Source: Acidobacteriota bacterium
GTDB lineage: Bacteria > Acidobacteriota > CAIWXX01
Assembly: GCA_016191015.1 (NCBI GenBank)
Contig: JACPPM010000044.1
Span: 3,862 to 67,861 of the forward strand
DNA length: 64,000 nt
Direction of reading: 5' to 3'
Positions 14,340-32,473 of the stretch are shown here, piece after piece; the stretch's first letter is position 1, and the number at the start of each line of letters is the position of its first letter. The position numbers and the translations under genes are program-made. The notes beneath the pieces were generated by a model. That model had not been told where the DNA came from. It ran no database searches and worked only from the letters and a program-made list of their open reading frames with translations.

Positions 14340-16190
14340 CTAGGCGGGATCAGTCGTGCACTGAGCCAGCCTCGACGGGTGAATGCGATAGATCTGAAAC
14401 CCGGCCCGCGCCATGCAGCTCGGAATGCTTCTGACGGTGCGCCGATTCTTCTCCTTCTCGCTTTCAGCGAGATCAGTCCAGGGAACGAGGTCCGGGTGCA
14501 ACTTCTTCTGGAGATCCCTGATGAGTCCGTGTTTCCACCCGTGCGCCTTCTTTTCCTCGACCCACCGACCATGCTCTTCTTGTGCCAGCTTCTCAATCTC
14601 GGCTTCCGCAAATAAGAAGTTATCGGCTCCGTAATCGGTCCATGGAGTGATGCCGCATCCGACCGTGATCAGCTTCCTGAGGATATCCCCTGCCTGTTGA
14701 CGATTCGTTTCCCTCACTTGTTCGGGGAGATGCTCCCATTCCACGAGGCTGGGATTGGGGGCGGCCGCACCGAGTGTGTGCCTCTCATCGCGGAGGTAGG
14801 CCTCGTGTATGACTCGAGCCAGGGTCTCGTGAGTGCCATCGTCGAGGAGACCCGGCCTACAAGTCCTATCGAGCAGTCCGAATGCCGTCAGGGTCGCCAG
14901 CTCCTCGTGGCACGAACGGACCTCGCGGAGCAACGCGGCCAGTCCTGTGTCCTCAGTCATTCGGACAAGGATTTGGATCTTCTCGGTCCGAACTCGCTGC
15001 AGAACCTCGAGGCCGGCACACAGGGCCATGGAAGAATCATCCACGCAGACATAGACATGAGTCATTTCGCACCGGTTCCGAGCGTCCCACAGCAGACTCG
15101 ACTTCCGGAACTCGGGCTTCCGAGTGTCGAAGTCGAGCGGGGTGAGGGCGCAGACGGTGTTGACCAGCGGGAAGCGCGAGCGCATCGCTTCCAGTTTACG
15201 GCTCGCCTCGGGATCGACCACCAGAATTCGCAGTGTGACGCGCGCGCGTGTGAATTCGCTGCTCCACCTCCGAGCCATGTGCACGATAAGGCTCTCGCCG
15301 AATCTGCCGAGCCCGACGATCAGCACACTGGGGGGATTTCCGTTCGGGTTCTGCTCTGCGAAGAGTGGGAATTCGCGGAGCACTTCTCGCGCTCCACTAT
15401 CGAAGATGTTAAAGAACTCTAGCCTGAAGGAGCCGCCGCCGGATGCAGTGAATTCGCGCTCACGGAGCAGAGTCCAAAGCTGTGGATCGACGATGTGAAT
15501 CGCACAGGTCAGCTTCCCCCGTTTCCGCCCCTTCGCCATGTCACGCGCCAGAACTGCCACTTCGGCATTCGCGCCATCGTCGGCGCAGACCGAAATCAGA
15601 TGCTGCGCCCGTTGCACGCCGGCCTTTCGCAGCACAGCCGCCTCCCGGGCGTCTCCAATAATGACGAACGCCCCCAGCTCCCAACTCGTCTCGACGTGCG
15701 GATTACCGGCGTCCTTTTCGACCACAACCACGCGTCGCCCTTGTTGACGGAACTCTCTGACGAGCCGCATTCCTTTTCGGCCGAGGCCGCAAATGACCAC
15801 GTGGCCGCGAAATCGTCGCAGACGGACCGCGCGGACCTGGTCGCGGAAGACAATGAGCAGCCCCTGAACAAACGCGTAGGCGGCAATCGCGGGGGAGAGG
15901 AACCTCGCGAGATCCAGTGTCCACGGCATGTGCACGCATGGATCCACATCCCCGGAGGATTCCATCACGAAGAGCTGGATGGACTGGTAGATGATACCCT
16001 TCAGGGTATACGACCTGCCTAGCATTGCGTAGTGACGCGCAAAGCCGAGAATTCCCACTCCCAGGGAAAACAGGCCGACGACGATCAGGAGCCGCCATTC
16101 GTTCTGGCGCCAAAAGGACTTAAACTTGGCAAGCAAGACCGATGATCGCAACACTGCGGCCCTCCGTTCGAGAGTGGAAATCAAGCGCAA
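14340..16190 (-). CDS. Ion-channel-like membrane protein: 2-TM pore module with a non-canonical filter, two RCK/TrkA-N Rossmann domains and a C-terminal tandem RyR-like module
   Basis: TM1 LLIVVGLFSLGVGILGF. Pore-helix/filter-like IYQSIQLFVMESSGDVD (compare K-channel TxGYGD and the CASTOR/POLLUX-type ADSGN filter). TM2 ARFLSPAIAAYAFVQGLLIVF. RCK motifs VVICGLGRKGMRLV and VLIVGLGRFGESLI. C-terminus LAQEEHGRWVEEKKAHGWKHG...LVPWTDLAESEKEKNRRTVRSIP. The TTG start at 16190 is uncertain. Confidence 0.75.
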   Translation of the reverse strand: MRLISTLERRAAVLRSSVLLAKFKSFWRQNEWRLLIVVGLFSLGVGILGFARHYAMLGRSYTLKGIIYQSIQLFVMESSGDVDPCVHMPWTLDLARFLSPAIAAYAFVQGLLIVFRDQVRAVRLRRFRGHVVICGLGRKGMRLVREFRQQGRRVVVVEKDAGNPHVETSWELGAFVIIGDAREAAVLRKAGVQRAQHLISVCADDGANAEVAVLARDMAKGRKRGKLTCAIHIVDPQLWTLLREREFTASGGGSFRLEFFNIFDSGAREVLREFPLFAEQNPNGNPPSVLIVGLGRFGESLIVHMARRWSSEFTRARVTLRILVVDPEASRKLEAMRSRFPLVNTVCALTPLDFDTRKPEFRKSSLLWDARNRCEMTHVYVCVDDSSMALCAGLEVLQRVRTEKIQILVRMTEDTGLAALLREVRSCHEELATLTAFGLLDRTCRPGLLDDGTHETLARVIHEAYLRDERHTLGAAAPNPSLVEWEHLPEQVRETNRQQAGDILRKLITVGCGITPWTDYGADNFLFAEAEIEKLAQEEHGRWVEEKKAHGWKHGLIRDLQKKLHPDLVPWTDLAESEKEKNRRTVRSIPSCMARAGFQIYRIHPSRLAQCTTDPA

Positions 16191-16376: not shown

Positions 16377-18263
16377 ATGGAATACTTGTCTCGCTTGTTC
16401 AGAAGCACGGGGTCTTCGGGATCAGGGGGGAGCTCCAAAGTCTGCATCGCCTGTGGCGCACGCAACCCGGTCGTGGCGCGGTTCTGTAACCGTTGTGGTC
16501 TGGAGTTCAAGCAGGCGTTGACCCGGTACGATGCCTTCGTCAGCTATCGTCGTGATGGTGGCAAGGACATGGCGACGATCATCAGGCTTAGTCTGGAGAA
16601 GTTTAGCAAGACTGTGTTTGTGGACGTGGACGAGCTTCAAACCGGACGTTTTGATGAGAAGCTGCTGGAGGCGATACAGCGTTCGGATAGTTTCATTCTT
16701 GTCCTGAGTCCCGGGTGCTTGGACCGCTGTGTTCAGAAGAGTGATTGGCTGAAACGTGAAATCATGCATGCCCTTCAGCTCGATAAGTGCGTCATCCCTG
16801 TCATGCTGAGGGGATTCCAGTTTCCATCGGAGTCATTCTTCAAGCAATTGCCCGACCTCATGCGTGTGCTGCCAACGGTGAACGCTGTTTCCTACGACCA
16901 TGATAGCCGGGAGGCTGCGATCAGGAAAATACTGGATTTCATGGCCCACCCGACGACCCCCTTCTCAGGGACGCCGGGGGACGTTCGTGGCGAGGGAGCT
17001 CCCAACGGGCTCCAACAGTCTGGGCCCGTGGTCGACGAGAAGCCCCGACGATCTGCTGAGGCGGCGCGCCGTTCCCATCACACAGTGGGTGACGGGATTG
17101 AGGCGTCTCAGCCCGACCCGACGACCGAGTCTGGGACCATCGCAACCGGTTCAGACGATGGGGCTGTGGCCGGGAAAACGTTGCCTTCGCCGTCGCCGCA
17201 AGTCCGATCCACTTCCACGGATCAGATGAATTCCGACACTCATAAGGTCATTCGGTCTCTGCTTGGCAGCGTTTCTATCGCCTCTGCCGGGATTGGCTAT
17301 GTGGATAATCGTGCAGGGGTGTTCAACGAGATCATGTTGAGATGCAATGACGACGATCGGCTCGCTTTTGAGCAGATCGAGTCCTTTCTCCAGGACGAGA
17401 ATCAGTTGGCAGCTGACGCGGCGGCAATGATCCTCATTAAGCAACAGGCCGTTCCTTCCGTGCAGACTGTGGAGCGCCTCATAAGGATCGTGAGGGGTGC
17501 TGGTCATCCGCTTCTCGCACTCGACCTGGGGAATGCCTGGCAACAGAACCTGCGCGGCTGGTCAGTGGAGCTTCAAGACCTCGTTCTCCGTGCTCTCAAG
17601 TATGTTTCGCGCTACCATGGCGGCCCACAGGTTCGACACATGGCGATCGAGGCGTTGTGCCGCGTCGGCACGAAGGAGGCTATTGAGGTGATCACTGAGA
17701 TCATCCTGCAGAAGAAACCCTCCCCCGGGGACGCAGCCTGCGGCAAGGATTGGGAGTTGGCGATTAACTATCTTACCGGGTCGAAGAGCAGTGAGGCATC
17801 ACTCGCCGTTGCCGATCTCTGCCGGCAGGCTGACGATCCAGAAATCCTCAGGAGCGTTGCATACTGGGTGAAGTGCCACTACAACGTGGACACTCTCAGT
17901 GATGAAAGCCGCCGGGCCATTCTGACCTGTATGCAGGGCATCATCTGCAATCCAGAGATTGAGGAATTGGGCCGACGCGCGGCGCTCACCGTGGTGATTA
18001 ACCTTGATCCGAACGGTGCCTTGCTCATCCTGGAAGATGAGCTTCCAAAAGGAAGGGGCGAATTCGAAAGAATGATGATCCAGGCTATTGATGAAGCGTT
18101 CAGAGGACGGGAAAGATTGCTGTGTTTGCTCTCGAGAAGTCCTCTCCGACTATTGGCGAGGGAGCGAATGCTGTGCGTAGCTGGCGATCCTGAGACACCG
18201 AAGCTCATGGTGAGCATGGCTGAGAAGTTGGCCAAACAGCTTGATGTCCCGAGCATGACATAG
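16377..18263 (+). CDS. Zinc-ribbon, TIR domain and HEAT-repeat protein
   Basis: N-terminal CIACGARNPVVARFCNRCG. TIR: YDAFVSYRRDGGKDMATIIRLSLEK...VFVDVDELQTGRFDEKLLEAIQRSDSFILVLSPGCLDRCVQKSDWLKREI, with a candidate catalytic Glu in WLKRE. C-terminal HEAT/PBS-lyase-like repeats (VRHMAIEALCRVGTKEAIEVI). AGGAGG lies 6 nt upstream of the ATG. Confidence 0.85.
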   Translation: MEYLSRLFRSTGSSGSGGSSKVCIACGARNPVVARFCNRCGLEFKQALTRYDAFVSYRRDGGKDMATIIRLSLEKFSKTVFVDVDELQTGRFDEKLLEAIQRSDSFILVLSPGCLDRCVQKSDWLKREIMHALQLDKCVIPVMLRGFQFPSESFFKQLPDLMRVLPTVNAVSYDHDSREAAIRKILDFMAHPTTPFSGTPGDVRGEGAPNGLQQSGPVVDEKPRRSAEAARRSHHTVGDGIEASQPDPTTESGTIATGSDDGAVAGKTLPSPSPQVRSTSTDQMNSDTHKVIRSLLGSVSIASAGIGYVDNRAGVFNEIMLRCNDDDRLAFEQIESFLQDENQLAADAAAMILIKQQAVPSVQTVERLIRIVRGAGHPLLALDLGNAWQQNLRGWSVELQDLVLRALKYVSRYHGGPQVRHMAIEALCRVGTKEAIEVITEIILQKKPSPGDAACGKDWELAINYLTGSKSSEASLAVADLCRQADDPEILRSVAYWVKCHYNVDTLSDESRRAILTCMQGIICNPEIEELGRRAALTVVINLDPNGALLILEDELPKGRGEFERMMIQAIDEAFRGRERLLCLLSRSPLRLLARERMLCVAGDPETPKLMVSMAEKLAKQLDVPSMT

Positions 18264-18630: not shown

Positions 18631-21144
18631 CTATCTCCGCCGAAGCCGTCGTATCTGGTAGCCCGCACTCGCGAGCAGCTCGGGGATCGCGCGCACGGCT
18701 GCTCGATCCCACTCCTTCACTTCATCCGGCAGCTCACTCCAGCTGACAAGGTAAGGACTGGTCTTCTTCACGGGATCTCGCTTCTCGCCCCGCTTGAAAC
18801 CACTCAGCAGCCGCTCTGCATTCCATCGCCCGTGCTCCATCTGTGCCAATCGTTCGATTTCTGCTTTGCTGAATCTTACGAGCTTCGGTTTTCTCCCAAC
18901 AACGGTCGACACATCGTATCCAACTTCGTGAAGCTTCTGAAGTATGTGGTCCGCCTGATCCAAATTGGAGTCCTTGAAGACCTTGTCGAGGCGGTCCCAA
19001 TCGACCATCGCCGGTTCTGTCCGGATGACGCTTTCCGTGTGCGCCTCGCGGTACCGCTCATGAATCGACCGGGCCATCCTTTCGCGCTCTTCCGCTCGCC
19101 ACGGCGATTCCCCGGGGCCGACGAAAGCACGCACTGTCATGGGATCGTTCGGCAAGCTGACAAGACCAGGAGAATTAGACCAATCTTCGTCGAACCACAG
19201 CTTGGCGGCTTCGCGCCCGCTGTTTTCGATGATTCCCACGGTGGCACCGAGCGCCAGGGCAAGGCGATACTCGAACGCCGCGATCGGGCCCCCGTTGATT
19301 CCGAGGAGCCTCACCGAGGCGGGATCGATTCCTGCGCTGAGAATGTCCGTCCAATTCTGGAGCGGCTCCGCGGGGCCGAATCCGCTTCCATCTGTCCGTC
19401 GAATCTCGCGGTAGCGCTTGTCGACGGTGGCCTCAGCAGGGATGAGTTTCGGCAGGTAGCCGATGCCCCGGATGGAGGCACGGTACTTCTCGGCAAGGTC
19501 CCCGGCCAGTCCGCTGATGCCTTGGGTTGTTCCGCCGGAGATGACGACGCCTTGATAATCCTTGAATGCGGCAGTCATGAGATTGCGATATTCATCCATC
19601 TGCTCCTGAACGGAACGATCGCACCCGCCTGCGACAATGACCACGCGCCCCGAGATCGGCTTGCATCCCTCGGATGAGTGCTTGAGCAATGTGTTCCGTC
19701 GAGATTCCGTCGGAAACTTCGCGGCCAGACCGATTTCCTCCAGCCTGAGCGCCCAACCGAAGCCGGCGATGCCGTCGCGCGTCGCCTCCAGCCGCTCGAT
19801 CGATCTCATCGAGGACTCGATCATGAATGCGGCAGTGCTCAGCTGGATGGCCTTGGCGAATGATATCAAGCTCTCGGAGGGCCGCCCGAGGTGAAGGATG
19901 AATTTGCCCATGCTGAAGAAGGCCCAGGGTAGGTTCACGCCGACGCGGGCCTGTTGGCGGCACCGATCGAGAGACGCGATGATCGTCGGCCTGAGCATCG
20001 GGACGACCGAGAGATCACGCCGCAAGATGATCTCGGCGTCGAGATAGTTTCCGAGCGCATACGGATCAGTGGGGTCCGCTTCGAACGCCAGCCGGTAGAG
20101 CTGTCGCGATTTCTCGTCATTGACCCCTTTCCAGGTTCCGGCCAGAGACGCGATGGAATCGATGTCCGGCTTCGTCGTGCTCATGGACTTCTCCAGGAGC
20201 GACTGGCCGCGTCGATAGTGCCGGCTCTTCGGATCCTTCTGGTGGACCTTGCAGAGGGCCACCCCAAGATCCCGCAAGAGAGGATTGCAATCTGATCCGG
20301 CATGTTCACCAAGCACCTCAATAGCGCGATCCCAATCTCCCAATGAGATCGCCAGCTTTCCGAGCTTCGCAGCGACCTGGACGTTTCCCCGGTCAAGCGT
20401 GCGAACGAAGTCCAGTACCTCGATCTCTCGCTGCATTCTTTCCGGCGTCATGTAGACACCGAAAGAGGAGGAGTACGCTCGCAAGGCGTCCACGACCCGT
20501 GAGAAGGAGTTATCAGCATTCTCCAGGAGGGCGGCGACAGCAGCGAGCTCACGCTCGAGTGCTTCCGGAACCTTGAAGCCGGCTTTGTAGACGAAATCAT
20601 GCGAGATATCAGCCCAGGCGTGTTCGAGGAGTGTGCGGACCTGAACCTCGGCGCGCGGGTTTTCCATCCTGTAAAGGACTTTCGGGACGTGTGTGCTCAC
20701 GATGGGATTCGGGAACGTGCCTTCCCTGAAGCTCACAATGTAATGAACTGAGCGGTAGCCAAACTCGGCGGGCCTGTGACGTTGGCTGACGTCGACACTG
20801 TTTTCCCAATCGATGAGAAAGTGGTCTTCGATGAATTTCGAAACAGCCTTCACTTCCTCGGGCGTATGGACGATGACGCGACCGCCACAGAGGTCCGTGA
20901 ATTCGTCAACGGGATTCTTGTGACCCGCTCGCTTTCGAAAGATCTTGTCGGCGAAGCTTGAGAGGGCCTTGGGGCGAGTCTGGACGATCGCGAGCGGCGC
21001 CAGCTTGCCGCTGACCTGCTCCAGGACGTCTCTCAGCGTCCGCGCGAAGATCTCGTAGTTCGCGGCTCGGGACCGATATTTGGCAATCTGCCGTCGAGCC
21101 CAATCGCGGTCGGAATTCGCAGAGTCAGATGTCGCCTTTGCCAT
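18631..21144 (-). CDS. RelA/SpoT-type nucleotide pyrophosphokinase domain, TPR-like helical region, SLOG (LSDAT/LOG-like) domain and tandem RyR-like module
   Basis: RSH synthetase motifs TDLCGGRVIVH, EFGYRSVHYIVSF and EVQVRTLLEHAWADISHDFVYK. SLOG motifs VVIVAGGCD...VVISGGTTQGISGLAG...LLGINGGPIAAFEYRLALALGATVGIIENSGREAAKL. C-terminus LAQMEHGRWNAERLLSGFKRG...LVSWSELPDEVKEWDRAAVRAIPELLASAGYQI. Confidence 0.85.
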   Translation of the reverse strand: MAKATSDSANSDRDWARRQIAKYRSRAANYEIFARTLRDVLEQVSGKLAPLAIVQTRPKALSSFADKIFRKRAGHKNPVDEFTDLCGGRVIVHTPEEVKAVSKFIEDHFLIDWENSVDVSQRHRPAEFGYRSVHYIVSFREGTFPNPIVSTHVPKVLYRMENPRAEVQVRTLLEHAWADISHDFVYKAGFKVPEALERELAAVAALLENADNSFSRVVDALRAYSSSFGVYMTPERMQREIEVLDFVRTLDRGNVQVAAKLGKLAISLGDWDRAIEVLGEHAGSDCNPLLRDLGVALCKVHQKDPKSRHYRRGQSLLEKSMSTTKPDIDSIASLAGTWKGVNDEKSRQLYRLAFEADPTDPYALGNYLDAEIILRRDLSVVPMLRPTIIASLDRCRQQARVGVNLPWAFFSMGKFILHLGRPSESLISFAKAIQLSTAAFMIESSMRSIERLEATRDGIAGFGWALRLEEIGLAAKFPTESRRNTLLKHSSEGCKPISGRVVIVAGGCDRSVQEQMDEYRNLMTAAFKDYQGVVISGGTTQGISGLAGDLAEKYRASIRGIGYLPKLIPAEATVDKRYREIRRTDGSGFGPAEPLQNWTDILSAGIDPASVRLLGINGGPIAAFEYRLALALGATVGIIENSGREAAKLWFDEDWSNSPGLVSLPNDPMTVRAFVGPGESPWRAEERERMARSIHERYREAHTESVIRTEPAMVDWDRLDKVFKDSNLDQADHILQKLHEVGYDVSTVVGRKPKLVRFSKAEIERLAQMEHGRWNAERLLSGFKRGEKRDPVKKTSPYLVSWSELPDEVKEWDRAAVRAIPELLASAGYQIRRLRRR

Positions 21145-21782: not shown

Positions 21783-22913
21783 CTACAGAATGGGCGCGTC
21801 TCCGGGCCTGAGGCTTGCGAGGAGTTCCAGCCGCATCGCGTCGATGAGAAAGCCCTGCATCTTCTCGTCGCCCCTCCCGTGATTCCGAGTGGCCAACACC
21901 ACTACGAGGCCACTCGGAAGCCGGACCGCATCCATGACGAGCTCCATGCTGTTCGGACGGGCCGGCGGCGACCAGATGAGGCGGAGCCCCGATGCGCCGT
22001 TTTCGTCCATGCGGATCTTCCGGAAGACGCTGCCCTGACGCCGCTCATAGCCCGGGACCCGCTCGAAGACCGTCTCGTTCACCTGCAGATGGCCCCCTTC
22101 GTCCAGAAGGTGGAGGCTTACGTCCAGAGGTCCCGGCATGGCCCGCCAGGCGGCACGGCGGTCTTCATCCGTCGTCTCTGTCCAGTCAGCCGGCACGCCG
22201 ATCAGGACCCTTCCTCCGAGAACCGAACGATCAACCACGCGGGGGATCTCCAGGCGACAGAGCTGAACAACGGCGTCCATCAGGGGCTCGCAGATTGCGA
22301 AGTGCGCCTCCGTGACGCAGGTGAACTGCACGACGTACTCGCTCAAGTGGAGCGTGAAGCTATACCTCCGGACCCTGCCGCCGTTGGGGTGGATGGCATC
22401 CGTAACGACGCACCAGTGGCCGGCGAAGTTCGTGATCTCGTTCCTGACGACGTTCGCACCCAGTTGGTTCTCGTAGTGATGCTTGGCATAGGCCTGCACA
22501 AGCGCGGGAGTTCGGTTCTCCTCGTCGAGGATCGCACTGACTCCCACCCGTAATATGAGGCCGACCGGGTCGATGAAGAACTTCACCCCCGTCCACGGAT
22601 CGTCGTCGCCCCGCTCGCTCGGCCAGGCCCCGGCCACTTGATAGAACAGGTGACGAAGCTGCCGCTGCTGCCCGGCGTTTGTGAGCCCTTGGATCTCGGC
22701 ATGCACCCTCTCGGCCGTTGGAAGAGGCGAGGAGAGTCGGGCGCGAGCAGCGACCACGAATGCGAGCGCGATGACCAGAGCAATCCCGATGCTCTTGGGA
22801 CCCAGGAGCCACCAGTGCCGCCAGACTCCGACTCCCCAACCGATCGCAACCCATGCCAGCAACGTTCCGAGTGCATTCACGGTTCTCGCTGTCGGCGCGC
22901 CCCTCCCGTTCAT
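21783..22913 (-). CDS. Membrane-anchored hypothetical protein (two predicted N-terminal TM helices plus a soluble domain of about 280 aa)
   Basis: The internal ATG at 22913 forms an ATGA overlap with the stop of the upstream STAND gene. TM segments LGTLLAWVAIGWGVGVW and IGIALVIALAFVVAA. The longer ORF (to 23417) overlaps the STAND gene and is rejected. Confidence 0.6.
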   Translation of the reverse strand: MNGRGAPTARTVNALGTLLAWVAIGWGVGVWRHWWLLGPKSIGIALVIALAFVVAARARLSSPLPTAERVHAEIQGLTNAGQQRQLRHLFYQVAGAWPSERGDDDPWTGVKFFIDPVGLILRVGVSAILDEENRTPALVQAYAKHHYENQLGANVVRNEITNFAGHWCVVTDAIHPNGGRVRRYSFTLHLSEYVVQFTCVTEAHFAICEPLMDAVVQLCRLEIPRVVDRSVLGGRVLIGVPADWTETTDEDRRAAWRAMPGPLDVSLHLLDEGGHLQVNETVFERVPGYERRQGSVFRKIRMDENGASGLRLIWSPPARPNSMELVMDAVRLPSGLVVVLATRNHGRGDEKMQGFLIDAMRLELLASLRPGDAPIL

Positions 22914-25900
22914 TCTTGAACCTCCTTGACGATTGGGATATCCCACGCGAGGGCGGCGAAGCCACGCGAGCCCCACGCCCAAATCTCCCGGCGCTCCGCG
23001 ACGATTGTACATCCTTCCGGTGCCCACTCGAGCGGGAAGCAGCCCGTCCAGCGAATCGGGGGTGACTCGTCCTCCCGGGGCTCGAACATCCGGACAAAGC
23101 CGGCAGAGTCTATGAGCACCCCCACTCGGCCGTCGCGACTCAGTGCAGCGGTGCGAATACCGGGCAGCAGCTTCACCGGCGGACTCGCCATGCCATTCAG
23201 GAGAAGCCACGCACCCATCGCGCCGTCGGTGAGGAGCACGCGTTGGCCGGTGCCGTCCACGGCTAGGGGACCACCCAACTCGAACGGTCCAGCGATCGTC
23301 TCCTCGCTCCGGATCGAGATCGAGAAAGGACGTGAGTACCATCCCGCGTCGACCGCGATCTGGCCGGAGTCGGCGATCAGCGCGCCCGTACACCAGCCCT
23401 CCATCCATCGCTCCCATATCCGCCTCCAGGGAGAGATCGTGAATGCCTGGAGGCGGGTCCGCTTAGCGCCCTCGACTGTTCGGCAGCCGACAAGAAGATA
23501 CCGGCCGTCGGGCGAGACGCTCGACAGCATGAGGTGAACGGTGTGCTCAGGGAGATCGTCGGGGGGACCGAGATTCATGGGAGGGTCCGACGTCGAGCAC
23601 CTCGCCAGATAAGAACGAGATCGACCTTCGAAGACGAGGAGTCCCTCGCTCGAGCCGATTCCGTGGAGAGCGCGCAACGCCCCTCCCGCGTCGCCAATCG
23701 GAAGCGCCGTCGTCACGTCTCCCGCGGGCACTTCCCAGAGCATCCCCCTCCTTTCGGCAAGCAGCGTCTTGCCCTCTGCCAGAGGAGCGATCCCGGCTAC
23801 GGCGTCGCGCGGCATCGAATTATGGGGCTGCGCCGGGAAGCCGAGATCCGGGGGATGCAGGATTCGCAGCACACCCTGCTCGTGCAGGACCGCTATCGCC
23901 TCAACGCCCGGGAAGACTCCCACCCACGAAGCGTATGACCCGGCTTCTGCGAGAACTTCGGTTTGCCATGCCGTCGACTCCGAGCGGCGCGAGCACGCCC
24001 CCCGCTCATCGACGGAGATGACGACGCGGCCATCCTCCTCCAGGATTGCACAGGTGATGCCCACGCCTGTCTCGCCATGCAATCGGACGCATCCGGAAAC
24101 CGCGATGACCTCGAGGTGGCCTGTACCGAGCACAACCGCATACCGTTGCCCGTCGGACGAGAGGCTCAGCGCGCGTACCTCCCCCGCGTGTCGCGAGAGC
24201 GGCAGAATCTCTCCGTCCAAGCTGCCCCGCCAGACCTGACCTCCATCGGTCCCCAACAGCCACTGCCGTCCGTCCGGCGCGATCGTCACGGCGCTCGGTC
24301 TCCCGCTGATGGTGCCCTGACGCATGCGCGTGGGTCGGGCCTGGGTGAGGTCGTACAGGACCCACTCACCCGACTCAGCCGAGACCACGAGCCGCGAACT
24401 GCCAGCAGCGAGTGCCAGCCCGGCAATCGGCCAGCCCGTACGAAACAGAAACGGCGGCTCGGTGGGGAGTCCCCGCCAGAGGGCCACATTCTGCCCGGCG
24501 ACGCCGACGACATGCCGATCGTTTGCGTCCAGATATCGAAGCCCACCGGGAGCCCCGAGTCCTTCTTGACGTACGACGCCTTCCGAATCCAGTACGATCC
24601 AGCGCCCCGACTGCTCGAACACGAGAAGCCCGAGAGGCGACAGTGCGACGGTCAACGGTCCGGGACGGTCCCCGATCCGGATCTCCTGCACACGAGTTCC
24701 CGTGATGTGGCTGGGTGAGGTGCGACTGCGGACCAGCGTTTGACCGGCCCGGCGAATGCTCTCGGCGTGGACGTCGAAACGTCGCTTGCATTCCTGTCCC
24801 ACACGCGAGCTCCAGCGGACGCGATGCCAGAGCTGCTGAAAGGCGAGTGTGTCATGTCGGCGGATACTGGGAGCTTCCGCCCAGAGCAGCGAGAAGAGAG
24901 CATCGTAGTCGGCTACGTTCGGGTCGGGCGGCCCGGCCCTGCCGGATTGCCGCTGCCATTCGCCGCCGGCGTGCCTTAGATCGGCCAGCATTCGATCGAC
25001 CCCGAGCTCCGGCGACACGCAGGTGCTGGAGAGGAAGCTTGGGCTGGTGAGGCGATCGTGGAGGGAAGTCCAGTCTCCTGCAGCCGCACTCTGAAACGCA
25101 CTCTCGTAGAGGCGGCGCGTCTCTGACGGCACCGATCGCGGATCGTTCTTGGAAAGAACCGGTTTCGGCCAGAGGAAGAGCGACGCGAGAGCGGCGTGCC
25201 GCTGGCAGCGTTGCTGAGAGTCACTCAGGTAGATCTCGCGGACGATATCCGCCACCATCTGATCGCGAAGTACGAGTACAGGGGCTCCCGGCGCACGCAT
25301 CTCGAAGAGGTAGGGCTCGATGTCCGAGTAGAGCCGGGCCCAGATGACAGGAGGCACCTGCGCGAACTCAGGCGACTTGCGGCCCAGGTGACGGAGCTCG
25401 GCGATCACTTCCGGATCCAGGGAAAGAGTGGCGACCAGCTCGTCTTCAGCGAGCCCGGAACGAGCGGAGGCAAGGTAGGCAAGGCAGCGGTCGACCAGCT
25501 TTGCCCCGTGTCGGCTCGGACTCGAAAGGCGCTCGAGCCGCCGCAGTACCAACTCGCGCTCGTCGCGGGCGAGCCGCGTCTCTTCCACGGGCGAGAACGA
25601 GTGCCACTCACGGGCCTCTTCGAACGCAAGCCGCAGATAGAGGGGAGAGGGACAGGCACGAAAGCCGGTGAGGACCGCCTCTCGCTGAGACGGTGAGAGA
25701 GTCCGCCCGGCCTGGTCGAGCCAGCGGTCGAGGAGCAGCTCTCCCTCAGAGGCCGTCATACGCGGGAGCGCGCAAATGGCCGCTTCCCCGAATCTTTCGG
25801 AGAAGGGGGCCGGCGGTTCGGCCGCCGCAACCGACAGGACGAGACGTACATGCGCCGGAAGCTGCGGCGCGGGTGGGATCCACGCGAGCCCTCTGGACGC

Positions 25901-27295
25901 CGCTTCTTCTGTCAGCCTCTCCAGTCCGTCGACAAAGAGGATGAGGGGCGTCTCCGGCCGAGCGCTTTCCAGGCACCTGGCAAACTCGCTCACCATCTCC
26001 GCAGGGCCGGCGCTCACGTCCACCTGGATGCCGAGCGCCCGCGCGATTTCGTCGCAGATCGAAGCAAGGAGTGGCTGCAATCGAGTGGACGCCGCCGTGG
26101 CGCCTAGATAGCGTGCAACGATGACCGCGTTCCCCTGCCGCTCCCGTGCACAGCGTGCCGCGTGCGCCATTAGGGCAGACTTGCCGCTTCCCGGTGGCCC
26201 CCAGAGAACGAGCGGATGCTTCGCATCGCTCCCGAGGTACTCCTCGACTTGGCGAAGCGTCTTCTCCCTGCCCACGAACGGGGAGGCCGTCTGGACGGCG
26301 AAGGCGCCGTGTCGATCGCATTCCCGCTGAAGAGGCGTGACAGTCGTATGACTCTTGGACTCGGAGACGATGATGGCCGCGAGTCTCCGGAAGACATCCT
26401 TGCAGAGGCGATCGACCTCCAGCCGACGTAGCTGTGCTTCCTTCCCGTCCCAGACGGCCGAGTAGCTCTTGATCTGTCCTGGAAGCCGGTCTATCAGCGT
26501 CTGCCGGAGAGCCAGCACTCGATCGTGAGCGAAGCGATCGTGCGCCCACCCGTGGTCGGGATCGAAGTCGGCGTAATCGCGCGCCTTCGGAATCGACTCT
26601 GCATCGAGGACGAGGCGTTCCAGATTGGTAATCGTCCGGAAGAAGCCGAACACATGTTGGCAGGCGTCGGGAACCGCCAGCGCGCCCCGATGGATCTCCT
26701 GCTCTGTGGCAGAAGCACCGTATTTCAACCCTGGGGCGACCTCCGGGCTCCCGGATGACGAAGAGAGATCCCGCGTCCCACGGTGGAGAAACGGAAGGAG
26801 GCGGGACTCGACTTTGCGCCAGGCGACGTCATCCTCGCACAACCCCACCCGGGACCTCAGAATCCACTCAGCGACTACCCTCCCTGCTCGCCGCCGCGCA
26901 GCGTTCCCGTCATGCACGTACCACTCGCGGAGCTCGTCCATCTCACGCTCCGTACAGCGCGATACGATCAGCTCCCACTCGTCATCCGATATGTAAGGGG
27001 GGAGGGGTCGCCAACCATACCGATCGCCGAGGAGGACGATGAAGTTCGGGCGCGGAGAGAGGCGCTGGCAGCGGGCCAGCTCCTCGAAGCAGACATTCAG
27101 AGTGCGGTGGTCGAGCGAAGCCTCTGCGCTGACGCCCCAACGGAGGTCAATGGCCTGGAAACTGGCCCCACGACGCTGGCAAAGTCGACGGAGTCGGGGG
27201 AAGACGCGCTCATCAAGCGCGTTGCGCTCCTCGACGAAGTCGGCAAAGGTGGAGCTGACGAACACCCTGAAGACGGTTCCGCGCTCGCGGGTCAT
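22910..27295 (-). CDS. Second STAND NTPase: DUF4062-like N-terminus, NACHT P-loop, helical arm and a divergent beta-propeller-like C-terminal region
   Basis: FRVFVSSTFADFVEERNALDERVFPRLRRLC...IDLRWGV...FIVLLGDRYGWRPLP. Walker A LVLWGPPGSGKSALMAHAA. Walker B-like LILFVDGLERL. Weak blade-like units in the C-terminus (VTIAPDGRQWLLGTDGGQVW, LSLSSDGQRYAVV, VSPDGRYLLVG, ALSRDGRVGVLI). The ATG at 27295 has AGGAG 6 nt upstream; the ORF is open to 27445. Confidence 0.85.
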   Translation of the reverse strand: MTRERGTVFRVFVSSTFADFVEERNALDERVFPRLRRLCQRRGASFQAIDLRWGVSAEASLDHRTLNVCFEELARCQRLSPRPNFIVLLGDRYGWRPLPPYISDDEWELIVSRCTEREMDELREWYVHDGNAARRRAGRVVAEWILRSRVGLCEDDVAWRKVESRLLPFLHRGTRDLSSSSGSPEVAPGLKYGASATEQEIHRGALAVPDACQHVFGFFRTITNLERLVLDAESIPKARDYADFDPDHGWAHDRFAHDRVLALRQTLIDRLPGQIKSYSAVWDGKEAQLRRLEVDRLCKDVFRRLAAIIVSESKSHTTVTPLQRECDRHGAFAVQTASPFVGREKTLRQVEEYLGSDAKHPLVLWGPPGSGKSALMAHAARCARERQGNAVIVARYLGATAASTRLQPLLASICDEIARALGIQVDVSAGPAEMVSEFARCLESARPETPLILFVDGLERLTEEAASRGLAWIPPAPQLPAHVRLVLSVAAAEPPAPFSERFGEAAICALPRMTASEGELLLDRWLDQAGRTLSPSQREAVLTGFRACPSPLYLRLAFEEAREWHSFSPVEETRLARDERELVLRRLERLSSPSRHGAKLVDRCLAYLASARSGLAEDELVATLSLDPEVIAELRHLGRKSPEFAQVPPVIWARLYSDIEPYLFEMRAPGAPVLVLRDQMVADIVREIYLSDSQQRCQRHAALASLFLWPKPVLSKNDPRSVPSETRRLYESAFQSAAAGDWTSLHDRLTSPSFLSSTCVSPELGVDRMLADLRHAGGEWQRQSGRAGPPDPNVADYDALFSLLWAEAPSIRRHDTLAFQQLWHRVRWSSRVGQECKRRFDVHAESIRRAGQTLVRSRTSPSHITGTRVQEIRIGDRPGPLTVALSPLGLLVFEQSGRWIVLDSEGVVRQEGLGAPGGLRYLDANDRHVVGVAGQNVALWRGLPTEPPFLFRTGWPIAGLALAAGSSRLVVSAESGEWVLYDLTQARPTRMRQGTISGRPSAVTIAPDGRQWLLGTDGGQVWRGSLDGEILPLSRHAGEVRALSLSSDGQRYAVVLGTGHLEVIAVSGCVRLHGETGVGITCAILEEDGRVVISVDERGACSRRSESTAWQTEVLAEAGSYASWVGVFPGVEAIAVLHEQGVLRILHPPDLGFPAQPHNSMPRDAVAGIAPLAEGKTLLAERRGMLWEVPAGDVTTALPIGDAGGALRALHGIGSSEGLLVFEGRSRSYLARCSTSDPPMNLGPPDDLPEHTVHLMLSSVSPDGRYLLVGCRTVEGAKRTRLQAFTISPWRRIWERWMEGWCTGALIADSGQIAVDAGWYSRPFSISIRSEETIAGPFELGGPLAVDGTGQRVLLTDGAMGAWLLLNGMASPPVKLLPGIRTAALSRDGRVGVLIDSAGFVRMFEPREDESPPIRWTGCFPLEWAPEGCTIVAERREIWAWGSRGFAALAWDIPIVKEVQE

Positions 27296-27511
27296 CAGAG
27301 GCTCCTGGTTGCGATCCCTTGGACCGCGGTGTCCACCGCGATTACCTGCGTGGCCGTCTTCATCCTCAGCCCGGCCGCCGTGCTCGCCGCCAGCGGCCGC
27401 TGCACGCCAGCTTCTCCGAGAGCTAGGGCGCAGCCAATAGTCCATTCATCCGTCATGCCCATGCAACGAGTTGGGTGCAAGAGGACCTCTTCGCGCGCTA
27501 TTGGCACCCGA

Positions 27512-29203
27512 TCAGGGATTCATCAGCCGTCCCACCTCCTGAAAGATGGTCGACGTGGCGAGCTTCAGATCCTCGACAACATCGCGCTTCCAGTACCGGG
27601 CCGCGGCCTTGGTGCCGCCGGGCAGGAGGCTGTGGAAGTAGGCGAGCTTGCCCTGAAGGCGATGGACCACGGAGAAGGTCACTTCGCTCTGGAAGAGGAG
27701 TGGATGTCGACAGAGCGAATCGAGCTCTGCAAGGCGATCGCGAAAAGCGAGCTCGGCAGGCCGATTGACGAGCTTCTCCTCAAGGAGCGCGCGCGCGGCA
27801 ACTCGGCCTGCCTGAATTACTTCGTCGACGCGCTTCAGATGACGAAGGCATTCCGCCCGGTGCATGTCGACAGCGGCGGTTCCAGTGCCAGCTGTCTGCG
27901 GCGCGGCACGGCCCTGCAGCGCCATGACAGCCCTGAGTTGTTCGACTCGCAGGTTGCCCTTTCCAAACAGGGAGTGCAGGGCCGAGAGCACCGAGTTGAG
28001 ATCCCGTGAGTTACCCGGCCATCGATGGTGCTGCATTTCTTGGAGGATCTCTTCCGGGAGCGCGGCGGTCTCATCCTTTGTGACCCTCTTCCACAGCGCC
28101 GCCGCGATCAGTGGGATGTCCTCGGGGCATTCTCTGAGTGTTGGTGTACGAATCATGAACCCTCGGAGACGGTAGTAGAGATCTTCTCTGAACAGGCCCG
28201 CCTGCACCAAAGAGAACAGATCGCGGTTGGTCGCCACGACGACCCGCGCGGAAACGTCGGTTTCCACGGAGCTCCCCAGCATCAGCACCTTCTTCTCCTG
28301 GAGCGCTCGCAGGATCTTGACCTGGTGGCGAGGTTCCAGGTCGCCGATCTCATCAAGGAAGATCGTGCCCTCCTGGGTATCCCGCCAAAGGCCCGCGCGG
28401 ACTCTGTCGGCACCCGTAAAGATCTTTTGATGTCCGAAGAGCATCGGTTCGAGCAGCCCGCTGGGTATGGCGCCGCAGTTGACCGGCGTGAAGGGACTGC
28501 TCTTGCGCCAGCTCTGTTCGTGGATGCACTTCGCGACGACTTCCTTCCCCGTGCCAGTGTCGCCGGTGATCAACACTGGATCCCCACTGGCGGCTGCGTG
28601 CATGATGAGCGCCCTCACCAGTTGTGCCTGCGCGGATCTGCCCACATAGCGCGTTTCGAGCTCCGAAGGCACCTTGGCGCTGTGCAGGAGATCCAGCAGC
28701 GTCCGAGCGAACACCGCGTTGTCTCCATCGGCAGGCCGCTGTTGCGCTGGTGTCCGGGATGAAATAGTAGGCGTCACTGAGACCGGGATGGGCGCGGCTA
28801 CATCCGTCTGCTTCCCGATCTCATCGAAGAGTTTCTGGGTCAGACCGATGACATAGACGTTTCTATCCCGCATGCGACTCGCATTCCCGAGGAGCGTCCT
28901 GATGCTTCTCATGCACTGCCCGGCCGACGTGAAGCCTCCGTCTATCAGTGGGATCTTTGAGCAGCCGAGAAGCAGCTTCGAGAGCTGCTTGGCTCTGTGT
29001 TTCCGGCCGCGGTCGATCGTCACATCCCTCAGCTGGCGCAGCGCGTGAAGATCATCGCTGCGGATGGCGACGGCTGCCGGGGCCATCTGCGATTTTATCT
29101 TTACAAGCTCTTGCGGCGACTCTGCCTCCAGCTCGGTGAGAGCCCCCTCGCACTCCCCGCCATCAATTCGGAACTGCAACACAGGAATCTTCATCGGCCC
29201 CAC
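27512..29203 (-). CDS. Sigma-54-interaction-type AAA+ activator (bEBP-like) with novel N- and C-terminal domains and no recognisable Fis-type HTH
   Basis: Walker A VLITGDTGTGKEVVAKCIH. MLFGHQKIFTGA stands in place of ELFGHEKGAFTGA. Walker B TIFLDEIGDL. Also VVVATNRDL, FREDLYYRL and WPGNSRDLNSVL. The last 100 aa or so are helical but lack the usual AAxxLGxSRxTLYRK HTH. Confidence 0.8.
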   Translation of the reverse strand: MGPMKIPVLQFRIDGGECEGALTELEAESPQELVKIKSQMAPAAVAIRSDDLHALRQLRDVTIDRGRKHRAKQLSKLLLGCSKIPLIDGGFTSAGQCMRSIRTLLGNASRMRDRNVYVIGLTQKLFDEIGKQTDVAAPIPVSVTPTISSRTPAQQRPADGDNAVFARTLLDLLHSAKVPSELETRYVGRSAQAQLVRALIMHAAASGDPVLITGDTGTGKEVVAKCIHEQSWRKSSPFTPVNCGAIPSGLLEPMLFGHQKIFTGADRVRAGLWRDTQEGTIFLDEIGDLEPRHQVKILRALQEKKVLMLGSSVETDVSARVVVATNRDLFSLVQAGLFREDLYYRLRGFMIRTPTLRECPEDIPLIAAALWKRVTKDETAALPEEILQEMQHHRWPGNSRDLNSVLSALHSLFGKGNLRVEQLRAVMALQGRAAPQTAGTGTAAVDMHRAECLRHLKRVDEVIQAGRVAARALLEEKLVNRPAELAFRDRLAELDSLCRHPLLFQSEVTFSVVHRLQGKLAYFHSLLPGGTKAAARYWKRDVVEDLKLATSTIFQEVGRLMNP

Positions 29204-29362: not shown

Positions 29363-31987
29363 TCAGATGTGTGACTTGAGCACAGCGTAGCCAGCTTTTG
29401 CCAGGATCCGCGGGATGTCGCGCACAAGGAATCGGTCCCTCTCTTTCTGCCCTTCCGGCAGCTGCTCCCACGGGAGCAATGCTTCGTGCTGCTTGTTCGC
29501 CTTATTGGTGTCGGACGAGTAGCTCCACCCGGCTCCTATCTTGGCTTGCATCCACCGGTCGTGTTCCATCTTCGACAGAAGATCGAGATCCGGACCTGGA
29601 AACTCGAATGGCCGCTCATTGCTCCGCGCCGGCATCATCACGTAGCTGACGGCAGAGAGCTTGTTTGGGATATCGCGCACGTTGCCGCGGTTCTGTTCCT
29701 TCTCGTCCTCGGCCAATTGCTGATAGGGCTTGATCGCGCTGTTGGTCTTCAGGATTTCATCATTCTTCGGCCCATAGCGATAGCCGTTGGACTTCATGTT
29801 GTCACAGAAGACCTCATGAGCGGCTTCGGCGAGTCTCTCGAGAAGGGGTCCATCCAGCCTCATTTGTTGGGTCAGCGCCATGAAATCCCGCCCGTCGACG
29901 TGCAGTTCGAGTTGGGCTTCGGAAGGCAGGCACGAGCGCTCGAATGCGCTCCTTCCGGCGAGCAGGCTCATCCCAATAACGGCTTCGAGCGAACGGGCTC
30001 CGTGCTTGTATTCACGGGTATGAAGGAACGCGCGGAGAACGCCCGGGTCTATGCTCGGGGCCAACGCGCCGCCCTGCTTCTGGAAAATGTGCCGGACCGT
30101 CCGGGAAAGCACCGATCGCAGCACCATGGCTCGGCGGATCACGTGGAGTGAGTCGACCGGCTTGCCGCTGGGAACCTGAGGGTTGAGACCCAGTATGTTG
30201 ATGTAGCCCTTCAAACGGCTGAGGAAGTCCGGGCCTTTCATCCTGACGAGCTCTTCGCGGCTCAGCGCTCCACCGAAGTCCTCCATTCGAGCGCACGTAC
30301 CTCCGGCGAAGACAAAGATGGCACGGCCAATAGGGTGCGCGATCTGTCCCTGCTGGAAGAAACCATCCTGCATGGGGGCGAGGAAATATCGAAGCCACCC
30401 CAGAGGCCTTCCTGCCAGCGCCGTGTCAAACTCGTCCCAGAACACGAGCGGAATCTGACCGGACAGTGCAACGTCTCGCACCTGGTGCAGAGCATCGAAG
30501 AGTGCTTCTTGCCCATCAAACTGGGAGAGGTTGAATTCAAGCGGCTTGATGGCACTGGACCGCACCGAGCGGGCGACCTGCTTCACTCCGAACGATTTCC
30601 CTGATCCGGGAGGTCCGAAGACCCCGATCGAAAGCGGCCGCTGCTGGCTCTGCCCGCAATATTCGATGAACAGACTTCGGATGCAGCGGAAGCTCTCGAT
30701 TTCATGGCGATCCGCAGTGATCAAGTCCTCGAACTGACCTAGGGGGACTCCTCTGAGGGCCGTCTCCGGCCCCTTCAGCACAATGTCTTCGGCGATACTA
30801 TCCAACGACCCCGCGCAACGATCCTGGAGGATTGTCCAGAAGGCGCTTTCAGGGGCGGTGCTGCCATCTGACGCGGAGCCGCTGATGAATCGTGAGGGAT
30901 CTTGCACATCGACCACGTCGAAGGGTCTTGCCACGGCCGCCACCACCTTCGCAATCGCTTCGTGCGGGAAACTCAACCCTGCCCGCTTCCCGCCGATCGC
31001 TCGCTCTTCATAACCTTGCTGATGGAGCACGCGCATCGCTGCGATGCCGGCTTGGATGCCCTGGACAAGATCGGGGTCTTCGGGGCGGATCATGACCTGG
31101 CGAGCCAGAGAGCCCGCGAGGCACGATGTGTAGCCAATCATTCCTCCTGGCAGATTCTGATTCCACGCGCCCTCGGGGAGTGTGGGGTCATAGATGAGCT
31201 TGCAGGTGGAATCCGCGCGCGAGTGCAGCCATGCCCCGGCCGTGTCGAACGATACGACGATGTGCGCGATGCGAGAGAGCGAATTGACGCGCGGGTTATG
31301 CGTCAGCTCCCAGAACAGATCCTGCACGGTTCGTTCCCAGGAGAGCTCCCGACTGATCTTGACCTCGGTGCGCCGCAGGTCGTTGACGGTCATGACAACG
31401 ATCAGCCGATCTGACCACTGTTCCAACAGGTGCTCCCACAGCTCTCCCTGCGCAACCGGCCGGGCCATCTTGAGGAGTATCCACGGGCGACGCCTGGATT
31501 GGACCAGTGCCCGCGGCCACATCTCCTTCTGGTTCCGAAATCCCAGGTCGGCGTCGTCGAGCACAACGAGGTCCGTTTCGGACGTATCGTCTGCGACGAC
31601 TTGGCACTCCCGACTCCCGGGATCAACCCCCAAGGACTCTTCGACCCGCCACGCCAGCGCCTTTCCGTCCGTGCGCTTGTACTGCGACCAGAGCGCATAC
31701 GAGTGATTCATACGTTCGTCGTCGAGCTGCGCAGGTCCGAAGGATGCGCCCGCCCGTCTCACTTCGAAATCCGGCCCGCCGTCACGGCGGAGTGTTTCGG
31801 CGACCGCGTCGATCAGCCCGGCCACCAGCGCTGCCCCGCCACACTGAGAGGAGGCACGCACTGTGTCAACTCGATCACACGACTGCGATGCGCTGTCCTG
31901 GCGTTGTCGAAAACGCCTCAAGTTCCAATCGATCGTCACGTCGCCTGTTACGATGGCGATCTTCTTCTGCGCGCGAGCGTCCGGCAT
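29363..31987 (-). CDS. PfkB/ribokinase-like N-terminal domain (degenerate), AAA+ ATPase and tandem RyR-like module
   Basis: N-terminus KKIAIVTGDVTIDWNL...CGGAALVAGLI...DLVVLDDADLGF...GYTSCLAGSLA (PfkB-like layout, tentative). Walker A IGVFGPPGSGKSFGVKQVA. Walker B-like PLVFWDEFD. C-terminus AHEVFCDNMKSNGYRYGP...YQQLAEDEKEQNRGNVRDIP and LSKMEHDRWMQAKIGAGWSYS...LLPWEQLPEGQKERDRFLVRDIPRILAKAGYAV. The ATG at 31987 has GGAGG 7 nt upstream; the ORF is open to 32041. Confidence 0.8.
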   Translation of the reverse strand: MPDARAQKKIAIVTGDVTIDWNLRRFRQRQDSASQSCDRVDTVRASSQCGGAALVAGLIDAVAETLRRDGGPDFEVRRAGASFGPAQLDDERMNHSYALWSQYKRTDGKALAWRVEESLGVDPGSRECQVVADDTSETDLVVLDDADLGFRNQKEMWPRALVQSRRRPWILLKMARPVAQGELWEHLLEQWSDRLIVVMTVNDLRRTEVKISRELSWERTVQDLFWELTHNPRVNSLSRIAHIVVSFDTAGAWLHSRADSTCKLIYDPTLPEGAWNQNLPGGMIGYTSCLAGSLARQVMIRPEDPDLVQGIQAGIAAMRVLHQQGYEERAIGGKRAGLSFPHEAIAKVVAAVARPFDVVDVQDPSRFISGSASDGSTAPESAFWTILQDRCAGSLDSIAEDIVLKGPETALRGVPLGQFEDLITADRHEIESFRCIRSLFIEYCGQSQQRPLSIGVFGPPGSGKSFGVKQVARSVRSSAIKPLEFNLSQFDGQEALFDALHQVRDVALSGQIPLVFWDEFDTALAGRPLGWLRYFLAPMQDGFFQQGQIAHPIGRAIFVFAGGTCARMEDFGGALSREELVRMKGPDFLSRLKGYINILGLNPQVPSGKPVDSLHVIRRAMVLRSVLSRTVRHIFQKQGGALAPSIDPGVLRAFLHTREYKHGARSLEAVIGMSLLAGRSAFERSCLPSEAQLELHVDGRDFMALTQQMRLDGPLLERLAEAAHEVFCDNMKSNGYRYGPKNDEILKTNSAIKPYQQLAEDEKEQNRGNVRDIPNKLSAVSYVMMPARSNERPFEFPGPDLDLLSKMEHDRWMQAKIGAGWSYSSDTNKANKQHEALLPWEQLPEGQKERDRFLVRDIPRILAKAGYAVLKSHI

Positions 31988-32473
31988 AGCGTTCCTCCCC
32001 GGTTGGAAGTCCTGACTGGATTTACGATCAGATGGGACCATGCTACCTTACCAGGATGGGAATCGACAAGCACTTTGCCAGTCGATCCCGTGGACGCTGG
32101 CGCGAGAGTGCCGGAGGATGACAGCGTCGCACCAAGAAGACGCGATCTGACATGCCCCCCGCGACAGACACAACAGTCTCATCGCAAGCGGCGTCCTCCT
32201 ATCTCGGACGGCCATGAGCTGTGGCAAGAGTGACGTTGAGTAGTTGAGTTAGTTCACCCTTCGCGGCGAGCATTTGGTTGAGATTCATACCATCCCGCGC
32301 CGACCCTTCCGATATATCCTCCAAAATCAACGGGATGAGGGCATGCTGAGTGACAGGCACCTTCTGGCATCGAGCTTGCAACTCCCGCAAGCAGATGGCG
32401 ACGAACAGATCTCAGGCTCTGGCCCTCAGCGGGGGCCGCAGACTCGCGACAGCTCGTCATGAAGGAGGATCTC

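Follow-up and report, generated by a model that had tools for sequence, protein, structure and literature searches.

Two preprints from 2026 report that phage proteins with ryanodine receptor (RyR) domains bind or cleave the cyclic ADP-ribose (cADPR) signals of Thoeris, and both concern phage proteins only; they also prompt the question of which functions RyR domains have in other settings (PMC13232231; 10.64898/2026.06.04.730250). The phage protein RyDEP (DyoEdafos gp78) binds and cleaves 2'/3'cADPR via H75, W78, H100 and D117, pocket residues that bind 3'cADPR and ADP-ribose (ADPR) and of which H75 and D117 form the glycosidase dyad; six of eight RyDEP homologues with the conserved residues bind the signal without cleaving it (PMC13232231). 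The phage protein RyR-Tad binds 3'cADPR at 43 nM via H129, W132, H154 and D171, which have the same spacing (10.64898/2026.06.04.730250), and animal Repeat12 binds ATP and ADP, stacked by the same Trp (PMC12627627). Here we describe a host-encoded gene on the minus strand of a 64,000-nucleotide stretch of an Acidobacteriota genome (GenBank assembly GCA_016191015.1, contig JACPPM010000044.1, positions 3,862 to 67,861; hereafter the window). Its product of 874 residues, encoded at 29363..31987 including the stop codon, joins a ribokinase/PfkB fold to an AAA+ module and tandem RyR repeats.

According to the main text of a survey of Thoeris effectors (10.64898/2025.12.03.692087), these proteins fuse ligand sensing to an output beside TIR genes, as in the SIR2-SLOG protein ThsA and in later Macro, SLATT and ion-channel types, and neither an RyR sensor nor an effector with a PfkB fold and an AAA+ module is described there. 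The family studied here has, by prediction, a fusion of the same logic, in many loci near TIR- or DUF4062-like genes, and SLOG- and SLATT-like partners recur at its loci. It differs from Thoeris in that its TIR partners are mostly large STAND-WD40/TPR proteins and in having no PADLOC model. A literature search returned no description of a protein combining a PfkB fold, AAA+ and RyR, nor of host RyR-fused effectors. The reading that we favour, with moderate confidence, is that the protein, encoded in a putative immune gene island, is a receptor or effector of signalling derived from nicotinamide adenine dinucleotide (NAD; TIR-made and of the cADPR type), in which the RyR repeats would gate an AAA+ ring and the kinase fold would serve as the working end or as a second ligand-binding end. 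Systems in which a sensor-effector fusion reads a TIR signal are known as a kind; what is new here is the sensor, the architecture of this effector and the domain family.

Architecture of the protein and its family

The plus strand of 29363-31987 contains many stop codons throughout, and the gene is read on the minus strand from a probable ATG at 31987 to a stop at 29363. The complete minus-strand open reading frame (ORF; 29363..32041) has 892 codons when counted from its first ATG. This in-frame upstream ATG at 32041 is probably not the start used, and 31987 is the better candidate because a Shine-Dalgarno sequence (GGAGG, 31998-31994) lies 6 nt upstream of it, because the public gene call for the protein has 874 residues (100% identical), and because N-termini in the family begin about ten residues ahead of the first strand (VVTGD). 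A first-pass annotation of this DNA had left the strand unstated and had set the upper boundary at 31987, which agrees with the better start. Residues are numbered here from the first in-frame ATG (32041), and 18 is to be subtracted for the 874-residue protein. The motif strings quoted in that annotation are all present on the minus-strand translation, namely KKIAIVTGDVTIDW (residues 26-39), GGAALVAGLI (68-77), DLVVLDDADLG (157-167), GYTSCLAGSLA (303-313) and GPPGSGKS (476-483). A word-indexed search returned 579 homologues at E<=1e-3, the top non-self match being 84% identical (E 2e-240), and an exhaustive search with the N-terminal domain returned 1,602 cluster representatives (50% identity) at E<=1e-3, 407 of them at E<=1e-30. 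These matches mark the gene as real, as opposed to a chance ORF.

The N-terminal ribokinase/PfkB-fold domain, with a four-strand beta lid, covers residues 26-385 (30887..31966). Its layout had been proposed from motif order, and a structure search of the region bears the proposal out. An AlphaFold2 model of the N-terminal 432 residues, made with a 47-sequence alignment, had a predicted local distance difference test score (pLDDT) of 81 and a predicted template modelling score of 0.81. Foldseek returned more than 333 PDB matches to this model at E<=1e-3 (best 4e-10, probability 1.0), and all of those listed were PfkB-family kinases. By VIA-align the domain matched pseudouridine kinase 7c1x with a Z score of 20.5 (287 aligned residues, root-mean-square deviation 4.3) and E. 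coli ribokinase 1rkd with a Z score of 18.6; the match spans model residues 6-360, which is the whole kinase with its four-strand lid. In an ESM Atlas language-model feature search, 26 of the 30 clusters nearest to the domain were PfkB. In the model, the domain adopts a complete ribokinase/PfkB fold.

Compared with PfkB kinases of known structure (1RKD, the A. thaliana and E. coli pseudouridine kinases 7C1X and 7VVA, and LacC 2AWD), the domain shares the whole fold with its beta lid (Z 18.6-20.5 over 266-289 residues), the GG hinge, and the acidic residues that follow strand 1 and close the DLVVLDD strand. It differs from them in sequence, with 10-14% identity and no PF00294 or profile-profile match, and in its active site, where the GAGD Asp is absent and NXXE has become N/D-D-L-R. 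It also exceeds them in length by about 60 residues, has an insert ahead of the helix equivalent to the GAGD one, and is always fused to AAA+. A linker (residues 386-401; pLDDT <50 at model residues 370-392) and a conserved helical lead-in to the ATPase follow at 30713..30886. The lead-in carries W402 and the motif VPLGQF..LxTxDRxEIE, and W384, T424, D426, R427, E429 and E431 (domain numbering) are invariant.

The family is unannotated, and its kinase-fold domain goes undetected by the models of Pfam, NCBIfam and PADLOC, which gave no match for residues 1-440. PF00294 did not match the protein at E<=0.01 or any of 47 relatives at E<=1, the N-terminal domains of these 47 relatives, scanned singly at E<=1, and of ten further relatives at E<=0.5 had no domain match, and a genome-wide PF00294 scan found four ordinary PfkB genes, the studied gene not being among them. 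When the domain was compared by hhalign with PfkB alignments drawn from the host genome and 25 relatives (relative genome G025 was excluded from the alignment), the probability was at most 4%, which is not significant; the sole local match was the correct VVSFxxxG / vviTlGxxG strand. A phmmer search against PDB sequences found solely RyR and a weak proteasomal AAA match, and no kinase. DUF7701 was rejected as an identity for the domain, its weak match in 12 relatives falling inside the RyR region.

The AAA+ P-loop and the two RyR repeats noted in the first-pass annotation were recovered by Pfam and by matches to the structural model. A model of residues 440-892, made with a 65-sequence alignment, had a pLDDT of 89. 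Its AAA+ large subdomain and helical lid (residues 444-728; 29858..30712) matched the second nucleotide-binding domain (NBD2) of Skd3/ClpB, ClpA D2, ClpC, RuvB and NtrC1/PspF with Z scores of 14-15 over about 225 residues, and the matches extend across the lid, ending at model residues 264-289. Walker A (GPPGSGKS, 476-483) is encoded at 30593-30616, and Walker B (LVFWDE, 532-537, with D536-E537) within 30425-30448; both are invariant or present in 64 of 65 relatives. Sensor-2 R683 is kept in all 65 and the candidate Arg finger R609, assigned by position only, in 64, and the model has a beta hairpin ahead of sensor 1. These conserved motifs are consistent with an active AAA+ motor.

With ClpA D2, ClpB/Skd3 NBD2, RuvB and the sigma-54 activators, the module has in common the large and lid subdomains, Walker A and B, the candidate Arg finger, sensor 2 and the hairpin before sensor 1. 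It differs from them in having only 13-17% identity, in lacking a Clp pore-loop motif, a GAFTGA loop and any DNA-binding or ClpP-docking element, and in its flanking domains, which are unique. The Pfam AAA match (PF00004) is marginal, at 22.1 bits against a cut-off of 21.2, and at E<=1 it is found in 42 of 47 relatives. Weak Pfam matches to nSTAND_NTPase5 and Torsin were discarded as P-loop noise, since an AAA+ lid is present in the model, whose structural matches are to Clp, RuvB and NtrC1.

The dominant architecture of the family, a kinase fold followed by AAA+ and two RyR repeats, was found in 160 of 271 fetched proteins. In the same set, seven representatives carry a C-terminal SLOG-like domain (C1, described below) and one a C-terminal TIR domain. 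The kinase fold always occurs with the AAA+ module, evident fragments excepted. Hosts include Chloroflexota, Acidobacteriota, Planctomycetota, Gemmatimonadota, Actinomycetota, Chlorobiaceae, Clostridia, Proteobacteria, Cloacimonadota and several archaea. The gene is single-copy in the host genome, and within the host's phylum 2 of 40 genomes carry it. Because it is patchy within the phylum yet spread over many phyla and archaea, it appears to be a horizontally moving accessory gene.

Variant forms were seen at individual loci. In a Methanobacteriaceae metagenome-assembled genome (MAG), an ordinary family member is directly followed by a 660-residue TIR-AAA+-RyR paralogue in which TIR replaces the kinase fold (L066:12712-14694, plus strand). 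The AAA+ part of this paralogue is 55% identical to that of its neighbour, and when the AAA-RyR chassis was searched for different N-terminal domains, this TIR-AAA-RyR cluster, with four member sequences, was the only one to emerge. A Methanoregulaceae MAG has a split form, with a 675-residue RyR-less protein followed by a 160-residue stand-alone double-RyR gene (L071:9700-12276), and a fused form of 1115 residues bears the SLOG-like C1 domain at its C-terminus (L053:3288-6635).

The RyR pocket and the catalytic residues of the kinase fold

Pfam RyR (PF02026) matched two repeats in the protein (E 2e-24, 86.1 bits against a cut-off of 27.4). The RyR part of the model matched the Bacteroides/human Repeat12 chimera Bt-hRyR12 (6uhi) with a Z score of 15.8 and human RyR3 Repeat12 with nucleotide (9ls7) with a Z score of 14.8. 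Repeat 1 (residues 733-809; 29615..29845) has a degenerate pocket, as seen from the RyDEP alignment and family frequencies, with H742, F745, N767 and N784 in the pocket columns. Repeat 2 (residues 822-889; 29375..29578) has a complete RyDEP-type pocket: in an ungapped alignment with DyoEdafos gp78, H827, W830, H852 and D869 correspond to H75, W78, H100 and D117. Across 65 relatives, H827 is kept in 65, W830 in 60 and D869 in 64, and H852 in 40, the rest having mostly Asn. In its RyR fold (Z 14.8-15.8) and in the H/W/H/D spacing of repeat 2, the module resembles RyDEP, RyR-Tad and animal Repeat12 (6UHB, 9L90), and its tandem repeats imitate their dimeric or pseudo-dimeric clamshell. In contrast to RyDEP and RyR-Tad, it belongs to a host protein with an attached ATPase and is no free anti-defence sponge or hydrolase, and its first repeat is degenerate (F, N, N). 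The pocket is confidently predicted to be an adenine-nucleotide pocket and, by best analogy, one of the cADPR type.

On the DyoEdafos genome (NC_053511.1, 48806-51556), RyDEP gp78 lies between a ribose-phosphate pyrophosphokinase (gp77) and a nicotinamide phosphoribosyltransferase (gp79), enzymes that recycle ADPR to NAD+ (PMC13232231). This placement of a phage RyR protein beside a ribose-directed phosphotransferase parallels, by analogy, the bacterial fusion of RyR to a ribokinase fold.

Conservation in the N-terminal domain was assessed over 161 relatives, down to about 33% identity. Ribokinase holds the sugar hydroxyls at positions equivalent to D34/D38 and D162-D163, and acidic residues are kept at both, D34/D38 lying after strand 1 and D162-D163 ending the DLVVLDD strand, with D163 in 156 of 159 relatives. 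The GG hinge (G68-G69) stands at the start of helix 1 in the model and is kept in 151 and 145 of 153 relatives, respectively. S264 and G269 line up with the TxGxxG strand. The observation that GYTSC stands in place of GAGD held up: G303-Y-T-[ST]-C307 caps the N-terminus of the GAGD-equivalent helix, none of the 161 relatives is acidic at any of these five positions, and the catalytic Asp of GAGD is absent in all of them, position equivalence being taken from secondary-structure order in the model. C307 is present in 128 of 161 relatives and is T, V or A in about 20%, and is therefore unlikely to be an essential base. The NXXE-equivalent turn reads N220-D221-L222-R223 (N in 69, D221 in 147 and R223 in 159 of 161 relatives), and the Arg at this metal site hints, on the evidence of the model, at a phosphate-bearing ligand. 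Further near-invariant polar residues are R132 (154/157), S234-W235-E236 (161/161) and E290 (157/161), none of which was assigned a counterpart in PfkB kinases. Our reading of the model is that the kinase fold may bind a ligand in a pocket from which the classical phosphotransfer machinery has been lost. The missing canonical base is in line with the earlier suggestion of a possibly inactive kinase, though a different site could be built from the other invariant polar residues.

The best-surviving alternative builds on those residues. The kinase fold might be an active enzyme with a non-canonical base, placing phosphate on a ribose hydroxyl of a nucleoside or of ADPR, while the RyR module would bind cADPR isomers and perhaps open them, so that the protein would convert, relay or recycle the signal. 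An unconventional enzyme of this sort is conceivable because the residue equivalences come from secondary-structure order in the model and not from coordinate superposition. Enzymes of the ribokinase family act on ribose and nucleoside hydroxyls, and the structures that the domain matches best are those of kinases for pseudouridine, ribose, nucleosides and adenosine. The retained GG hinge and acidic sugar-holding positions, the alignment of S264/G269 with the TxGxxG strand, and the conservation of R132, R223, S234-W235-E236, E290 and, in most relatives, C307 would all suit such a site, as would the RyDEP glycosidase dyad (H/D) kept in repeat 2 and the two enzymes encoded on either side of RyDEP in DyoEdafos. 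We nevertheless consider this alternative unlikely, given that every relative lacks the GAGD Asp and has NXXE replaced, that C307 is so often substituted, that most RyDEP homologues with the conserved residues bind without cleavage, and that the AAA+ motor would be left without a role. A more elaborate sequence of events, in which a cADPR isomer bound at RyR (and perhaps opened to ADPR) leads to AAA+ ring assembly, and the kinase fold then phosphorylates an ADPR-type ribose to give a new messenger or reset the pathway, is in our estimation improbable. If true, it would be a ribose phosphorylation step without precedent in NAD-derived immune signalling.

Genomic neighbourhoods and the island in the window

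We compared 80 genome loci with up to 10 kb on each side, using our own ORF calls, clustering, and hidden Markov models (HMMs) built from recurrent neighbours; the family gene was found in 78. A TIR- or DUF4062-like gene lies within 10 kb in 40 of these 78 loci, and in 21 of the 40 it is less than 300 bp from the family gene. A Pfam check showed that such neighbours are mostly the N-terminus of large STAND-WD40/TPR proteins. DUF4062-like genes occur in 17 related loci, and 17 of the 78 loci have further RyR proteins, chiefly a TrkA_N-RyR channel-like protein.

The SLOG-like gene class C1 is adjacent or fused to the family gene in 29 loci, usually immediately downstream (for example L007:4561-5154 and L054:12680-13312, with 27 other loci). 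C1 is a soluble domain of about 190 residues with the motifs GVTGHR, LAEGADR and WDG..GGT, in which GxxGHR, LAEGxDR, WxG and GT are invariant. It gave weak Pfam matches to three SLOG families (YpsA, DprA and YAcAr), with a best E of 0.003, below threshold, and no profile match to the PDB; since the Pfam matches are weak only, the label SLOG-like is provisional. In about ten loci C1 is fused to a four-helix membrane domain with faint similarity to SLATT.

In the window, the studied gene heads a minus-strand run that continues with a sigma-54-activator-type AAA+ gene, a DUF4062-STAND-WD40 gene, a small membrane protein gene and a RelA/SpoT-TPR-SLOG-RyR gene. The sigma-54-activator-type gene (27512..29203, minus strand; Pfam Sigma54_activat E 3e-53) begins 160 nt downstream of the studied gene and is not a conserved partner, no cluster of it occurring in three or more related loci. 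The DUF4062-STAND-WD40 protein (22910..27445, minus strand) has 1511 residues, with domains assigned by Pfam, and belongs to neighbour class C4, the same cluster being present in 10 related loci. Between it and the RelA/SpoT gene, in the minus-strand run, lies a gene for a protein with two transmembrane helices (21783-22900), which on comparison is unrelated to C1; the window has no C1 gene. The RelA/SpoT-TPR-SLOG-RyR protein (18631..21144, minus strand), identified by Pfam and RyR alignment, is the second RyR protein of the window and belongs to cluster C9, found in 4 related loci. Beyond the run are a zinc-ribbon-TIR-HEAT gene (16377..18263, plus strand; Pfam TIR_2 E 6e-11) and the gene for a TrkA_N-RyR channel-like protein (14340..16190, minus strand), the third RyR protein, identified by Pfam and belonging to neighbour class C3, whose cluster occurs in 12 related loci.

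These gene types are concentrated in the window. All three RyR proteins of the 6.4-Mb genome are encoded in it, inside a span of 17 kb, both DUF4062-like genes of the genome are there (5241-9710, plus strand, and 22910-27445, minus strand), and TIR-like ORFs occur in two regions of the genome, the window and one other (contig C136). The three RyR pockets of the island differ: in the last RyR repeat of the RelA/SpoT protein (18631-18870, minus strand) H, W and D are kept and Ser stands at the RyDEP H100 position, and in that of the channel-like protein (14340-14585, minus strand) H, W and H are kept and Asn stands at the D117 position. The proposal that the protein is a signal-responsive component of a cluster gains support from this gene context together with the RyDEP-type pocket residues.

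We also looked at promoters. Upstream of the studied gene, the minus strand showed no canonical promoter of the sigma-54 or sigma-70 type. An imperfect sigma-54-like site (TGGCAA-N5-TTGT, 32066-32080, minus strand) lies about 80 nt upstream of the ATG at 31987, its -12 GC reading GT. A near-consensus sigma-54 promoter (TGGCAT-N5-TTGC, 32365-32379, plus strand) lies about 80-95 nt upstream of an SPFH/Band-7 gene (32459-33685) that is divergent from the studied gene. A loose sigma-54 pattern matched 12 times in the window against 6.7 expected, which is weak alone, and the island's sigma-54 activator (27512-29203) has no helix-turn-helix.

A proposed role in NAD-derived signalling

The analysis above shows folds, the state of the motifs, the size of the family and its gene neighbourhoods; ligand, coupling between the modules and output are what we infer in the following scheme. 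A TIR/DUF4062-STAND sensor would make an NAD-derived signal, which the RyR clamshell of the studied protein would bind; the channel-like protein and the alarmone synthetase would bind it too, each through its own RyR module. In the studied protein, binding would then control assembly of the AAA+ ring or its ATP turnover. The kinase-fold domain would be the constant business end and would most likely bind a ribose- or phosphate-containing molecule rather than act as a classical kinase.

Several observations weigh against a receptor or effector of this kind. In the window no TIR gene is directly adjacent to the studied gene; the TIR gene is 11 kb away, and the nearest DUF4062-STAND gene is 1.9 kb off, behind another gene. 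Among 45 well-flanked loci, our own HMMs detected neither a TIR nor a SLOG-like nor an RyR neighbour in 16, which come mostly from Clostridia and Chlorobiaceae, so the TIR link is not universal; these 16 loci have no other conserved neighbour either. About 20 cluster representatives stop after the AAA+ lid and have no RyR module, and PADLOC gave no match for the protein as a whole. The catalytic incompetence of the kinase fold is deduced from motif positions in a model. Finally, because animal Repeat12 keeps the same residues and binds ATP and ADP, the ligand could be an ordinary adenine nucleotide.

Much of this would suit a different protein, an AAA+ remodeller that senses nucleotide or energy state and has no specific tie to immunity. 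Its RyR module would sense ATP or ADP, as Repeat12 binds them with the same Trp (PMC12627627), its kinase fold would sense a sugar metabolite, and its TIR neighbours would reflect the clustering of accessory genes; the third or so of well-flanked loci that lack TIR, SLOG and RyR neighbours, the RyR-less forms and the missing PADLOC match all agree with it. We regard this explanation as rather doubtful, since the TIR/DUF4062 link, seen in half of the loci, is far above the background of two TIR-bearing regions in a 6.4-Mb genome, since fusions to SLOG-like and TIR domains occur, since the patchy distribution suggests horizontal transfer, and since the full H/W/H/D cADPR pocket is conserved. Ring nucleases limit signalling in type III CRISPR systems, and a comparable host off-switch, in which the RyR module degrades or sequesters the TIR signal to limit self-damage while the rest of the protein regulates it, would fit the positional identity of H827/D869 with the RyDEP catalytic dyad and the presence in the island of other RyR-bearing candidate effectors (the channel-like protein and the alarmone synthetase), but it is the least probable of these explanations, as conservation of the dyad does not predict cleavage and the 700-residue core of kinase fold and AAA+, more conserved than RyR and also found without it, would be odd as the regulator of a hydrolase.

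On the receptor or effector reading, this gene, taken with its neighbours, suggests that the RyR pocket serves as a receptor in bacteria and archaea. Three different outputs carry an RyR fusion in this one island: the AAA+/kinase-fold protein, the channel-like protein and the alarmone synthetase. If the reading is correct, TIR signalling would gain new classes of both sensor and effector, and the long-debated connection of cADPR with the ryanodine receptor could be studied in a tractable prokaryotic system.

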